Of a stretch of 3,555 nt of DNA, positions 1-3,555 are shown piece after piece. This stretch comes from a virus. Lineage: Duplodnaviria > Heunggongvirae > Uroviricota > Caudoviricetes. The position numbers were made by a program, and so were the translations under genes. Within the stretch, counting starts at the first letter, position 1. Each line of letters opens with the position of its first letter. Under the pieces are notes generated by a model. That model had not been told where the DNA came from. It saw only the letters and a program-made list of their open reading frames with translations, and searched no databases. The stretch lies in IMG/VR virus record IMGVR_UViG_2529292921_000021; one strand, given 5' to 3'.

Positions 1-276
1 ATGGCGGGTTATTTGTCCGGGTTATTCCCCCGTTGTAAAATCTCTCCTAAACTTAACGGTACGGCACCACACTTCGGGGATGAAATGTTCGCGCTGGTAC
101 TTTTTGTTTGCTACCTGGATGGCGGTTGTGAAGATATTGTTGTGGATGTCTACAACACGGAACAGCAGTGTCTTTATTCTATGAGCGATCAACGGATCCG
201 CCATGGCGGTTGTTTTCCGATTGAGGATTTTATAGATGGTTTCTGGCGACCTGCACAGGAGTACGGTGATTTTTAA
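1..276 (+). CDS. yebW: YebW-like small protein of unknown function; ORF is open from the ATG at position 1 (91 codons), but the conserved part and a better ribosome-binding site suggest the real start may be the internal ATG at 85 (63 aa)
   Basis: Frame-1 ORF ending in TAA at 274..276. The C-terminal 63 aa (MFALVLFVCYLDGGCEDIVVDVYNTEQQCLYSMSDQRIRHGGCFPIEDF...) matches my recollection of E. coli YebW, which sits immediately upstream of pphA and is convergent with it. GGGGA lies 4-8 nt upstream of the ATG at 85. Nothing upstream of position 1 is visible, so the long form cannot be evaluated. Confidence 0.6.
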   Translation: MAGYLSGLFPRCKISPKLNGTAPHFGDEMFALVLFVCYLDGGCEDIVVDVYNTEQQCLYSMSDQRIRHGGCFPIEDFIDGFWRPAQEYGDF

Positions 277-933
277 TTATTGCAATTGCACAAGAGTCAG
301 TTCTCCCCCAAAGACAGCACCGGTATCAATATAATGCAGGTTGCCAATATCCACGCGATGGCGCAAAGGTGTATGACCAAACCAGAAATGATCAGCACCT
401 GCAATTCCCTGCCCTTTTTGGCGTTCACCTAATCGCGAGCGGCTCCACAAGACCTGATGCAAATCGACGTCCTTTTGCCATTCATAGACATCATCTGGAT
501 AATCGGCATGAGCAATAACATGTTTGCCGGTGCGACTGTGTAATTCAAGAATAAAGGGCAAATGCTGACATTTTTCCAGCGCCGTTTTCGCTTGTTTCTG
601 TTGATTATCTGCCAGCGCAATAAACCAGTCGCCGCCATTTATCAACCATAAAGACATCTGCCGGGATGCCAGCGCATCCATCGCCATCTGTTCATGATTG
701 CCTCTTACCGCACGAACCCAATGTTGTTCCAGTAACTGCAGGCAACGTAAACTTTGCGGCCCACGATCGATAACGTCTCCCACTGAGATAAGTAAATCTC
801 GCCACGGATCAAAACGACAATGCCATAATTTGCGGCGCAATTGCTCAAGACAACCGTGTATATCGCCTGAAAGCCAGATATGTCGCCATTGATGACCCGC
901 AATTCTCTGATAAATGGGCGCAGGCTGTTTCAT
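277..933 (-). CDS. pphA: Serine/threonine-protein phosphatase 1 (lambda-phosphatase-like metallophosphoesterase)
   Basis: The ORF track gives 277..936 because it accepts the TTG at 936; the only ATG is at 931..933, giving 218 aa starting MKQPAPIYQRIAGHQWRHIWLSGDIHGC... GGAGG sits 12 nt upstream of that ATG on the - strand. Metallophosphatase motifs are visible in the translation (GDIHG, GDVIDRG, GNHE, GHTP). Near-identical, from memory, to E. coli PphA/PrpA. Confidence 0.9.
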   Translation of the reverse strand: MKQPAPIYQRIAGHQWRHIWLSGDIHGCLEQLRRKLWHCRFDPWRDLLISVGDVIDRGPQSLRCLQLLEQHWVRAVRGNHEQMAMDALASRQMSLWLINGGDWFIALADNQQKQAKTALEKCQHLPFILELHSRTGKHVIAHADYPDDVYEWQKDVDLHQVLWSRSRLGERQKGQGIAGADHFWFGHTPLRHRVDIGNLHYIDTGAVFGGELTLVQLQ

Positions 934-1067
934 CAATATTTTCCTCCCGCGCTAAAGATCACATAATCTTAACAAGAATGTTAAAAAACGCTGGACTCAG
1001 ACAGTAGAGTGTGTGTTATGGTTGACTATAAAGTCAGCGAAGGGAATGCTTCTGGCTTTTAACAGAT

Positions 1068-1100
1068 AAAAAGAGACCGAACACGATTCCTGTTTTCGTC
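1068..1100 (-). ncRNA. sdsR: 3'-terminal remnant of the SdsR/RyeB small RNA (terminator hairpin plus U-tract); probable junction/att core of the inserted element
   Basis: The - strand of 1068..1100 reads GACGAAAACAGGAAUCGUGUUCGGUCUCUUUUU. This matches, with about 3 differences, the 3' end of SdsR as I remember it (GACCGAAUACAGGAAUCGUAUUCGGUCUCUUUUU). The position (about 130 bp beyond the pphA start, same strand as pphA) fits the known pphA-sdsR/ryeA-yebY arrangement. The sequence on the 5' side of the RNA (coordinates above 1100) does not resemble the SdsR body, so only a fragment is present. Identification is from memory. Confidence 0.35.
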
Positions 1101-1397
1101 AACAAACAATAAACCCTTTTTAAATTAATTTGTTAAGCAAAATTACGCTCATCTTTTAATCCCAAACACGTACCATTGCATATTAATGCATTCAATTAGT
1201 TACCATTTTTTTCGAGTTTTTTAGAGAAAATTTCGGGACTATTTCAGACCAATCCAGGCAGAAATAAGCAATCCCTATATTGAATGATTCCGCAACAATT
1301 ATGTAAAATCACCTCCGGCTGATTTTCATTCAAACTCGCGCTATCGAACGTCCATCAGCCAGCCGTGGCACGTTCTTGCATACGACGTGCTACGGTT

Positions 1398-1951
1398 TCA
1401 TTTATCTCCGACCGGAAACTTCTTATACAAAGTCGATACGCCAACATCATAAATGATCGCCACCTTCTGGCGAGGAACTCCTGATGCAATTAGTCGCCCG
1501 GCCTGCGCCCATTGTTCTGGTGAAAGTTTGGGACGGCGACCGCCAATTCGTCCCTGTGCGCGAGCAGCTTCCAGTCCAGCTTTTGTTCGTTCAACAATCA
1601 GTTCACGCTCCATTTCAGCCAGGGCCCCATCACATGAAAGAAAAAGCGCCCCATTGGGGTACTGGTATCAATTGAATCCGTCAGACTACGAAAGTTGATG
1701 CCTCGTTCGCGCAACTCCTCCACCAGCACGACAAGATGCCGCATACTGCGCCCCAGTCGGTCCAGTTTCCAGACCACCAGCGTATCACCTGCCGATAATG
1801 TCCTGAGCAGTTTTTTCAGTCCCGGCCTTTCGGACTTTGTACCGCTTATCTTGTCTTCAAAAATCAGCTCGCATCCTGCACAGTTCAGCGCATTACGTTG
1901 TAGATCTGTGTTCTGGTCATTTGTTGACACACGTACATAGCCAATAAGCAT
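1398..1951 (-). pseudogene. pin: Gin/Pin/Hin/Cin-family serine DNA invertase, disrupted by a 1-nt frameshift in a G/C homopolymer at about 1622..1628
   Basis: Two adjacent - strand ORFs (1598..1987 and 1398..1613) in different frames together give a full invertase. The N-terminal part is MLIGYVRVSTNDQ... (catalytic Ser in the YVRVS motif) ...MGRFFFHVMG, then frame is lost (PWLKWSVN*). The second frame continues (A)LAEMERELIVERT...GRIGGRRPKL...YDVGVSTLYKK, the helix-turn-helix C-terminus. From 1398 to 1951 is 554 nt, one short of 555 (184 aa plus stop). The true start is the ATG at 1949..1951, with GGGGGA 7 nt upstream; the extra 12 codons in the ORF track are an artefact of an upstream in-frame ATG. 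Confidence 0.8.
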
Positions 1952-1977
1952 GGTAGATCCCCCTGACAAAAGCAGGA

Positions 1978-2550
1978 ATGATGCCATTTGCTCGTTATTT
2001 CTGCATTTTCATAAACGTTGGTTTGGGAGAAGGTGCTCCAGCTATTGGCGTTCCGTTCTTCTGGCCGTCCGCCGCAATGCCAAATACTGTAATCGACAGT
2101 TGGTCCAGCATGGTGTTTTTGAAGTTCAACGGCGCGAAATTCTCTGCCACTGATTACCCTGTGCTGGCGAAAGTGTTTCCGGCGCTGGCATTACCTGACG
2201 CACGCGGTGATTTCATTCGTATCTGGGATGACGGACGCGGGATTGATGTCGGACGTACCCTACTTTCAGGGCAATCACACACAATTATGGATCATGCACA
2301 CAATATGGAATTGTGGACGGGGGACGGGCTTGTCGCAGGAAGTACACGGGAAGGAGTAAACCCAGGAATACTGGCTACATATGGTGACGGGGGAATAGTT
2401 AAAACGGACGAACCCGGTCTTAGGGTGCCTTCCTCACTACGAGCTATTAGCTCTCGTAGCGTTAAACGTTATGGTGAAATTAGTGGAAATGTAGGTACAG
2501 AAACCCGCCCACGAAATATTGCATTTAACTTTCTAGTGAGGGCTAAATAA
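1978..2550 (+). CDS. Tail-fibre C-terminal variable cassette (alternative receptor-binding end, Sv'-like); probably not an independent gene in this orientation
   Basis: 190-aa ORF; the frame is open from 1957, directly after a TAG. It contains a phage tail-collar-type motif (...FNGAKFSATDYPVLAKVFPALALPDARGDFIRIWDDGRG...; LPDARGDF at 2191..2214). There is no convincing ribosome-binding site at the correct spacing (AGGA is only 2 nt before the ATG). It begins at the candidate crossover site and is followed, with a TAATG overlap, by a tail-fibre assembly gene, as stfE/tfaE are in e14. Confidence 0.65.
   Translation: MMPFARYFCIFINVGLGEGAPAIGVPFFWPSAAMPNTVIDSWSSMVFLKFNGAKFSATDYPVLAKVFPALALPDARGDFIRIWDDGRGIDVGRTLLSGQSHTIMDHAHNMELWTGDGLVAGSTREGVNPGILATYGDGGIVKTDEPGLRVPSSLRAISSRSVKRYGEISGNVGTETRPRNIAFNFLVRAK
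2006..2031. other. Candidate invertase crossover site (gix/hix/cix-like 26-bp imperfect palindrome) marking the proximal boundary of the invertible segment
   Basis: TTTTCATAAACGTTGGTTTGGGAGAA agrees with the Mu gixL site as I recall it (TTCCTGTAAACCGAGGTTTTGGATAA) at 18 of 26 positions, including the AAAC / GGTTT arms around a central dinucleotide. It lies 55-80 bp from the invertase start and inside the first codons of the tail-fibre cassette, where such sites sit in Mu, P1 and e14. The match is to remembered consensus sequences only. Confidence 0.4.
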
Positions 2551-3143
2551 TGAAACCTGTTTTTGATGAAAATGGGCTGGCTACAGTACCGGGTAATATG
2601 CGTTGTTTTTATTATGAGGCAGTTACGTATGAATATACTGGCTGGTCTGATGAATATATTAATACTGGCGTAAGTATGCCCGCTTGTTCCACTGGTATTG
2701 ACCCGGGCGAATACATTCCGGGAAGAGTGGCAGTATTTACGGGTAAGGGATGGAGCCATGAAGAAGACCACCGCAATGAGACTGTTTACTCAATCGAAAA
2801 TGGCGCAGCTGTTACAGTGGATTATATCGGTGCCATCAAAGACGGTTATGTCACGCTTTCACCGTTAACGCCATACGATAAATGGGATGGTGAGAAATGG
2901 GTGACGGATACCGAGGCACAGCATAGCGCCGCAGTAGAAGCGGCAGAAGCACAGCGCCAGTCGCTGATTGATGCTGCAATGGCTTCCATCAGTCTGATTC
3001 AAATGAAATTACAGGCTGGGCGGAAGCTGACGCAGCCAGAAAACACCCGACTTAACGCTGTGCTGGATTACATTGACGCGGTGACGGCAACAGATACCAG
3101 CACAGCGCCGGACGTCATCTGGCCTGAACTGCCGGAGGCGTAG
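2550..3143 (+). CDS. Tail-fibre assembly protein (Tfa / Mu U / P2 G family)
   Basis: 197-aa ORF whose start overlaps the stop of the upstream cassette by 1 nt (TAATG), with GAGGG 9-13 nt upstream. The C-terminus (...LDYIDAVTATDTSTAPDVIWPELPEA) carries the conserved Tfa C-terminal motif (DTSxAPDxxWPxxP) remembered from TfaE/TfaR, Mu U and P2 G. Confidence 0.85.
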   Translation: MKPVFDENGLATVPGNMRCFYYEAVTYEYTGWSDEYINTGVSMPACSTGIDPGEYIPGRVAVFTGKGWSHEEDHRNETVYSIENGAAVTVDYIGAIKDGYVTLSPLTPYDKWDGEKWVTDTEAQHSAAVEAAEAQRQSLIDAAMASISLIQMKLQAGRKLTQPENTRLNAVLDYIDAVTATDTSTAPDVIWPELPEA

Positions 3144-3555
3144 GCCATTCAATATCTGGCGCACCGGAAGTATCGACCAGTTCCAGTGCGTCCAGATAAT
3201 CCAGCCACAAATTATATTGCGCCAGTTCCTCACCTTTCAGCCGGCCAATAGCCGCTTTACCAGGCCATTGTTTACTGTTCATATAATCGTTGGCCTGATT
3301 AATCAGTTGCTGCTTTTCCAGTTCGGCTGCAGCAATCTGTTCCTCATGTGTTGGTGGTGGAATTTCAGACCATGCAGGAAAACCATTTTCTCCAGCGATA
3401 CGGATTTTTCCTTTCGGCGGTAATCCGGAAAACTCAATATACACTTGCTCATCAACTTCAACAGCATCATCTGGCCATGAGTCAGCTTGAGTGTAATCCT
3501 CTTTCATCTCCAGCGGATAGAAAGAGTTTGTAGTCGCGGAATATATGTAATTCAT
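3115..3555 (-). CDS. Tail-fibre assembly protein (Tfa family), second copy, convergent with the first
   Basis: 146-aa - strand ORF starting at the ATG at 3553..3555 (the last three bases of the window) and ending at 3115. The C-terminus (...LDYLDALELVDTSGAPDIEWPTPPAVQAR) has the same Tfa motif. It overlaps the 3' end of the + strand tfa by 29 bp. Its ribosome-binding site and the expected upstream tail-fibre gene lie outside the window. Confidence 0.85.
   Translation of the reverse strand: MNYIYSATTNSFYPLEMKEDYTQADSWPDDAVEVDEQVYIEFSGLPPKGKIRIAGENGFPAWSEIPPPTHEEQIAAAELEKQQLINQANDYMNSKQWPGKAAIGRLKGEELAQYNLWLDYLDALELVDTSGAPDIEWPTPPAVQAR

Follow-up and report, generated by a model that had tools for sequence, protein, structure and literature searches.

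A probable lambda-type attachment-site arm with a terminator-like module in the 3' end of sdsR

The DNA between positions 1094 and 1397 of the window (the whole 3,555-nt stretch analysed here) is very likely the int-distal attachment (att) arm of a lambda-type temperate phage inserted in the 3' end of sdsR (ryeB), and it appears to include a conserved, terminator-like module. The window carries yebW (85-276, plus strand) and pphA (277-936, minus strand), then a short native sdsR/ryeA remnant followed by about 300 bp of non-coding DNA, a pin-type serine invertase gene (1398-1987, minus strand) and, as part of an invertible segment, tail-fibre and tail-fibre-assembly genes. The invertase gene is frameshifted by a 1-bp deletion after 1625, placed by comparison with pinE of the AH19B041 prophage, and its Resolvase and HTH_7 domains are split over two separate ORFs. 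A first-pass annotation, made from the sequence alone, had described 1101-1397 as AT-rich and free of credible ORFs, and both descriptions held: the GC content of this region is 0.37 against 0.47 for the whole window, falling to 0.29-0.33 across 1051-1300, and 1101-1354 contains no ATG- or GTG-initiated ORF of at least 20 aa, the only ORFs being TTG-start ones of 20-29 aa. The same annotation had favoured a small RNA ending at a remnant of the SdsR terminator and had mentioned, as an alternative, an attachment-site arm together with the 3' untranslated region of the invertase gene. This alternative turned out to be correct, and attB, attP and both prophage junctions could be documented.

Comparison of positions 900-1450 with all 5426 complete E. 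coli genomes placed the end of homology to the chromosome at about 1098. Junction and arm were found together in 228 of the 5426 genomes (matches covering at least 80% of the query), the remainder matching 900-1098 alone, so that approximately 4% of complete E. coli genomes have a prophage at the sdsR/ryeA site. A complete prophage, that of strain AH19B041, spans 42 kb between pphA and yebY and is arranged in the order pphA-arm-pinE-tail-head-lysis-early genes-xis-int-arm-yebY. In the phage record PP818812, int (1-1077) is followed by AAAAAAAGACCGAATACGATTCCTGTTTTCGTCAAC, with the core at about 1215-1234, and then by a homologue of window positions 1099-1390 (1240-1531 of the record, 91% identity); a second attP form, with the same int-core-arm order, was found in one IMG/VR contig. 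The stop of homology at about 1098, combined with the int-attP-arm order of the free-phage record, argues that 1094-1397 is the int-distal att arm. Its first part, 1094-1295, is specific to this phage group and would be the equivalent of the lambda P arm.

The recombination site itself was delimited by a four-way comparison of the K-12-like empty site (attB, which reads AAAAAGAGACCGAACACGATTCCTGTATTCGGTCCAGGG), the window junction, the attP of PP818812 and the int-side junction of AH19B041. All four sequences share an identity block at 1074-1093, AGACCGAA(C/T)ACGATTCCTGT. At 1082 the window carries C, as the host does, and at 1094 it carries T, as the phage does, which indicates that strand exchange occurred within 1083-1093. 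The window contains the int-distal junction, with host DNA up to about 1093. The phage would have integrated by site-specific recombination into the last ~20 bp of sdsR, inside the overlapping ryeA, between pphA and yebY. What is new here is a well-resolved instance of a lambda-type att arm; its integration site, sdsR/ryeB, was already known. The same target is used by PhiW104 of Salmonella enterica DT104, for which later papers summarising the original study give the last ~23 bp of ryeB (sdsR), a segment within ryeA (Balbontin et al. 2008, J Bacteriol 190:4075, as cited in PMC7380047; 23 bp also in PMC3603311). The likeness noted between the two phages is that of the target site; the host is Salmonella in one case and an E. 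coli/Shigella-type chromosome in the other. When species-representative genomes were searched, an exact 38-mer of the arm gave no match and a degenerate 30-mer matched only one S. flexneri and one E. coli genome, so the arm seems to be restricted to Escherichia/Shigella in this collection.

The recombination proteins of the phage are of lambda type. The cognate enzyme, a tyrosine integrase, carries at its N-terminus the lambda arm-binding domain PF09003 (Arm-DNA-bind_1; 29.7 bits, cutoff 22), in addition to a central and a catalytic domain (PF22022 and PF00589), and the excisionase belongs to PF07825, the lambda Xis-like family. The attP contains three copies of AAATTTCGGG, as a 10-mer or a 9-mer and all in the same orientation: the int-side arm has a tandem pair ~50-60 bp away from the core, and the int-distal arm has the third copy, 134 bp out. 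This last copy, at 1228-1237 on the plus strand, is a candidate Int arm-type site. Its TTTCGGG was invariant in 35/35 of the distinct homologous arms that we gathered from IMG/VR, PP818812 and the AH19B041 prophage. The window has a single copy, and a motif search confined to the window gave it no significance; the arm-type motif became convincing only after both attP arms were compared.

Two IHF-like sites were located on the plus strand between the core and the candidate arm-type site. The first (1123-1135, AATTAATTTGTTA) has one mismatch to WATCAANNNNTTR; its variation among the 35 arms falls mostly at unspecified N positions, and in 2 of them it reads AATCAATGCGTTA, a perfect match to the consensus. 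The second (1190-1202, ATTCAATTAGTTA) also has one mismatch, and the single variant found among the 35 arms, ATTCAACCAGTTA, differs at N positions alone. Its 10-mer TCAATTAGTT is also present, inverted, in the int-side arm; of the 10-mer common to both arms in inverted form, AACTAATTGA, the int-side copy gives the perfect IHF consensus AATCAATTAGTTG. Across the whole window the IHF pattern occurs at chance level (4 found, 4.5 expected). Adjacent to the second site, a tandem T-rich direct repeat, TTTTTT(T)CGAG / TTTTTTAGAG, occupies 1206-1226 on the plus strand; 22 of the 25 positions in 1203-1227 were invariant in the 35 arms, and the repeat may be a candidate excisionase-binding or DNA-bending element. 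The block running from 1190 to 1238 is the most conserved of the arm, with 85-91% invariant positions, compared with 53-69% in the remaining unique parts (1104-1189 and 1239-1295). Recent common ancestry of the 35 arms may account for much of this conservation.

Arranged in this way, the arm would serve as protein-binding DNA for the recombination complex, offering one Int arm-type site, two IHF-like bends and possibly an Xis repeat. These assignments are of candidate sites, and the lambda-like layout is deduced from motif and position. Like the P arm of lambda (P1/P2, H1/H2, Xis and Fis sites), the arm sits on the int-distal side, with the core at one end and the first phage gene at the other. 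The likeness extends to the integrase arm-binding domain, the Exc-family Xis, the position of the candidate arm-type repeats (a tandem pair in the int-side arm, ~50-60 bp away from the core, and another copy ~134 bp out on the opposite side) and the placement of the candidate IHF-like sites between the core and the arm-type site. There are also differences. The lambda core is the O site and the core used here is the sdsR terminator; the arm-type motif here, AAATTTCGGG, differs from that of lambda and was recognised in one copy in the int-distal arm; and no sequence similarity was seen between the lambda P arm and this arm, whose sites are candidates by sequence. The arm-type motif of lambda is C/AAGTCACTAT.

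A simpler account would be that the stretch is a decaying spacer at the end of the prophage, with a foreign origin behind its AT-richness and nothing but recent shared descent behind its conservation. The close relationship of the 35 arms fits this account, as do the decayed state of the prophage copy in the window (the pin frameshift) and the tolerance of IS1 insertions in the arm, seen in Shigella and at one other locus. However, the arm lies inside the attP of a free-phage record, its conservation is uneven and highest over the arm-type and IHF-like sites, 10-mer repeats link both arms, and the pairing of the terminal hairpin of the module is maintained by compensatory changes in many contexts (see below), all of which makes mere decay quite improbable and speaks for a functional att arm.

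The last ~100 nt of the arm differ from the rest in being common to many lambdoid phages. This conserved module (1296-1397, plus strand) abuts the pin stop codon. It is 77-81% identical to lambda 24169-24267, to HK97 20941-21040 and to phi80, and it matches many Stx phages. In lambda it lies in the b region, between ea47 and ea31, and in HK97 it runs from the annotated sib site, which it directly follows, to a relic of the pin 3' end (GGAGATAAATGA). A search with the hairpin loop recovered the module in at least 119 IMG/VR stretches, where it has many different neighbours on either side and usually lies between convergent ORFs. Its distance from the att end is 190-260 bp in the phage studied here, in HK97 and in the K-12 prophages Rac and Qin, and its orientation relative to that end is the same in all four. 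We considered whether it was a mere 3' flank of pin and rejected this: in K-12 e14, the 107 bp from the pinE stop to the mcrA start are devoid of the module, and in Rac and Qin it is found near the att ends and not beside pin. Its absence from e14 and its placement in Rac and Qin indicate that the module tracks an att-proximal position more than it tracks pin. Several unrelated lambdoid prophages, among them Rac and Qin of K-12, have this covarying module of about 100 nt close to their att ends, where it carries no annotation, and 1296-1397 would be one copy of a mobile, conserved two-hairpin unit found near the att end of many lambdoid prophages.

Two hairpins are predicted in the module, both on the plus strand. 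Stem 1 (1317-1323/1354-1360; GGCTGAT/ATCAGCC), predicted in a 143-nt fold, encloses about 30 nt. In it, 82.6% of the alignment cells were paired, with two-sided changes from GC to AU at 1322-1355 and from UA to CG at 1323-1354. Hairpin 2 (1361-1397), whose stem is G+C-rich and followed by UUUCAUUUAU, is probably an intrinsic terminator. Its predicted folding energy is -21.5 kcal/mol (z -4.4) for the plus strand and -18.0 kcal/mol (z -1.8) for the minus strand, 98.5% of its cells were paired, compensatory CG/UA and AU/GC exchanges were found at three pairs, and its covariation score was reached by none of 500 shuffles. The ratio of G-U to A-C combinations in hairpin 2, 69 to 14, favours an RNA read on the plus strand. 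The tail after the hairpin, UUUCAUUUAU, holds a short U tract here (UUUC AUUUAU) and is TTTTTC in K-12 Rac and Qin; the U tract is absent in lambda, and weak or absent in some other contexts. The terminator scan had not listed hairpin 2 because its loop exceeds the 8-nt limit of the scan.

Hairpin 2 is most likely an att-proximal intrinsic terminator that acts on plus-strand transcripts entering from the att or the host flank. For the circular phage this would mean ending the int transcript, and for the lysogen ending read-in from neighbouring host DNA, which here would come from the ryeA promoter. Either way, transcription would end before running antisense into pin, the tail-fibre genes and other convergent late genes. 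If this is true, lambdoid phages would carry next to attP a module that blocks both host read-in and int read-out. The arrangement resembles tI/sib, the terminator and retroregulator that lambda has on the far side of attP, downstream of int, in that hairpin 2 lies ~270-300 bp past the core on the int-distal arm, is oriented against int transcripts and is parted from int by integration; the likeness is one of position and orientation, lambda sib showing no sequence similarity to hairpin 2. The module is additional to sib in HK97, where it adjoins that site, and lambda has its copy of the module in the b region, at a distance of 3.5 kb.

A hairpin homologous to hairpin 2, on the opposite strand, forms the 3' end of CssrB (RF02799), a small RNA of S. 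flexneri 301. CssrB measures ~180 nt by Northern blot, and its 3' end derives from terminator prediction and is unmapped (PMC3071730). The position of this minus-strand 3' end at the homologous hairpin suggests that hairpin 2 may act on both strands. Membership of the CssrB family was rejected for the module itself: the match scored 31.7 bits against a gathering score of 76 and covered the terminal hairpin only, 129 central positions of the model being missing.

The covariation of both stems, and the preference of the G-U pairs for the plus strand, would also suit a self-contained plus-strand small RNA gene of ~85 nt made of stem 1 and hairpin 2, with GTAAAATC as its -10 element. The promoter scan returned TTGAAT-18-TAAAAT at 1280-1309, and the TAAAAT is kept at the module edge in nearly all contexts. 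We nevertheless regard such a gene as improbable: the number of promoters found equals the shuffled expectation (2 against 1.6), the differing left flanks share no common -35 element, Rac and some other copies retain only hairpin 2, and the module gave no Rfam match except the CssrB 3' hairpin, which lies on the other strand. A terminator at the att-proximal end of the prophage is the reading that we retain for the module.

Integration at this site has different consequences at the two junctions. The core block corresponds to the descending (3') half of the SdsR terminator. A new descending half and U tract come from the phage at the int-side junction, and with them full-length sdsR is rebuilt; the resulting terminator folds at -15.8 kcal/mol, the same as the native one. 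In the window, the native 3' remnant of sdsR, consisting of the descending terminator arm and the U tract (1070-1093, minus strand), is identical to the K-12-type empty site and is joined to a phage-derived ascending half, GACGAAAAC, with which it pairs poorly. This hybrid folds at -4.5 kcal/mol (z +0.68), without a terminator stem, versus -15.8 kcal/mol for the native hairpin. On the other strand, the window retains the native 5' part of ryeA, ~nt 1-63 (1031-1093, plus strand), beside pphA and with its sigma-70 promoter just upstream, and this part reads into the phage DNA. Using the coordinates of primers and fusions given by Choi et al. 2019 (PMC6610125), we put the probable RyeA start at about 1031, in agreement with the 3' RACE length as measured on the K-12-like empty site.

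From this arrangement, a plus-strand chimeric RNA of ~370 nt is predicted, running from RyeA nt 1-63 through the arm to hairpin 2 and retaining sequence antisense to the SdsR 3' end. As pphA is transcribed mainly by read-through from the sdsR promoter (PMC6610125), which in the lysogen should lie ~42 kb from pphA, lysogeny might rewire this toxin/antitoxin-like small RNA pair: sdsR would be rebuilt, the ryeA promoter detached, a RyeA-5'::arm chimera produced and pphA cut off, with the att-proximal module acting as a general insulator/terminator. We put this forward as a tentative scheme. In Salmonella, PhiW104 lysogeny is reported to lower RyeA and raise RyeB (PMC7380047, PMC3603311), and also to change the 5' part of ryeA (PMC7380047).

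It is possible, if doubtful, that the arm is mainly a template for this chimera, so that rewiring of the SdsR/RyeA/pphA circuit would be its principal role. In the window the promoter and the start of ryeA are preserved intact, 1361-1397 is the first strong plus-strand hairpin with a U-rich tail, and the normal dependence of pphA on the sdsR promoter and the PhiW104 expression changes point in the same direction. Against it, the transcript would be a by-product of insertion, with no sign of selection for it, the pattern of conservation along the arm suits protein-binding sites better than RNA, and the antisense segment that is left covers only the SdsR terminator. The att arm therefore remains our preferred reading of 1094-1397. 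Whichever role the chimera has, a prophage at sdsR/ryeA parts pphA and the ryeA promoter from their usual partners, and studies of SdsR/RyeA/pphA regulation in strains with such a prophage should allow for it.

The structure of the window junction also bears on the small RNA proposed in the first-pass annotation, a chimeric or phage-encoded minus-strand transcript within 1100-1400 that would end at about 1070, at the SdsR terminator, and carry the SdsR-like seed UGCAUUAAU. The 'terminator remnant' on which it relied is only half native: the descending half and the U tract (~1070-1093) belong to sdsR, the ascending half is phage DNA, and since the hybrid hairpin fails to fold, the remnant is not credible as a terminator for such an RNA. 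The seed itself is real, as the 9-mer is present at 1182-1190 on the minus strand and equals nt 17-25, in the 5' region, of K-12-type SdsR. It was found, however, in only 8 of the 35 homologous arms, the other 27 having ATTAATACA, and a 9-mer shared with SdsR nt 1-72 arose in 12% of shuffles when either strand was allowed and in 3.7% for the minus strand alone, a chance expectation of 4-12%. The Rfam SdsR model (RF00111) does align at 1068-1149 (E = 0.31), but its score of 24.1 bits is under the gathering score of 38 and is owed mostly to the terminator half, and the 5' hairpin of SdsR type that the alignment suggests (AGCGUAAUUUUGCU, AGC...GCU) is lost in most arms, which have AGCAUAAAUUUAUU. 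The promoter/terminator scan returned nothing on the minus strand of the region, with no promoter-like site there within 1100-1400. A full, intact sdsR is, moreover, present at the other junction. With no fold, no minus-strand promoter and motifs that are not kept, the proposed small RNA was not supported and is highly improbable. We are confident in annotating the stretch as an att-site arm followed by a terminator-like module, and it is no target for new small RNA work. As to known families, SdsR was rejected on the sub-threshold score, the missing stable 3' terminator hairpin and a seed reduced to one 9-mer, and RyeA because its Rfam match was sub-threshold, at permissive E-values.

The second motif of the first-pass annotation, a perfect 7-bp inverted repeat (AAAATCA/TGATTTT, 1305-1311/1320-1326, 8-nt spacer), is likewise present but carries little meaning: 36% of dinucleotide-preserving shuffles of the region contained at least one perfect 7-bp inverted repeat with a loop of 3-20 nt. 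Within the lineage it was retained in 32 of the 35 arms; the PP818812 type has it broken. When 60 members of the module family were compared, 66.9% of the cells were paired, the covariation did not go beyond that of shuffles, and three of the seven pairs were unpaired in 40-43 of the 60 sequences. The first-pass annotation had itself named absence from homologous elements as the mark of a chance motif, and the poor retention of both the 9-mer and the inverted repeat in homologues indicates that the two are coincidences. The right arm of the inverted repeat overlaps the better-supported stem 1.

The conserved hairpin recurs near prophage ends of E. coli K-12 (NC_000913.3; L153, L154), where Rac carries the hairpin only (1434738-1434758, 200 bp inside the prophage end) and Qin the whole module of about 100 nt (at 1632538-1632558, 260 bp inside). 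TTTTTC follows the hairpin in both, and the RefSeq annotation of NC_000913.3 holds no entry at either position. The hairpin was absent from the 107 bp of e14 that separate the pinE stop from the mcrA start.

Two prophage ends had been invaded by IS1 within the int-distal attachment-site arm (window 1094-1397). In S. flexneri SFBU1023 (L150) the element lies at the equivalent of window 1189-1195, that is, within the IHF-like site 2, and in a further arm (L011) it is found near window 1346. Because IS1 interrupts the arm in both cases, these ends are probably dead for excision. Five IMG/VR sequences (L020, L038, L022, L026 and L029) joined the same arm to left flanks unlike the E. coli pphA side, one of them reading ...CTGGCTTTATAGATAAAAAGAGACCGAACA, and these differing flanks suggest either that the sdsR terminator also serves as the integration site in further hosts or that attP has had different partners. 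The phage record PP818812 (L004), named 'Actinobacillus phage vB_Apl-pPE4', has an attP core equal to the enterobacterial sdsR terminator and an arm that shares 91% identity with its E. coli prophage counterparts; on these comparisons, Actinobacillus pleuropneumoniae looks doubtful as its host label.

The int-side arm lies outside the window (L004 1078-1214; 42979-43117 in L003, the prophage of strain AH19B041) and carries the core a second time, in partial form, as AAAAAAGACCGgAATACaGAaATTC. The rebuilt sdsR/ryeA is preceded at close range in this arm by TTGCAA-15 nt-TACAAT, which could substitute for the displaced ryeA promoter.

The pin invertase gene (1398-1987, - strand) differs from pinE of strain AH19B041 by a 1-bp deletion after 1625 (GGGC-CCC vs GGGCACCC), which splits it into two ORFs, one with Resolvase and the other with HTH_7; the frameshifted gene is either a pseudogene or the product of a sequencing error. 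Beyond it, two convergent tail-fibre-assembly genes (2550-3143, + strand; 3115-3555, - strand) bear at their 3' ends an 18-nt inverted repeat (3062-3079/3188-3205, 83% complementary), which reflects the homologous C-termini of both genes in the invertible segment.
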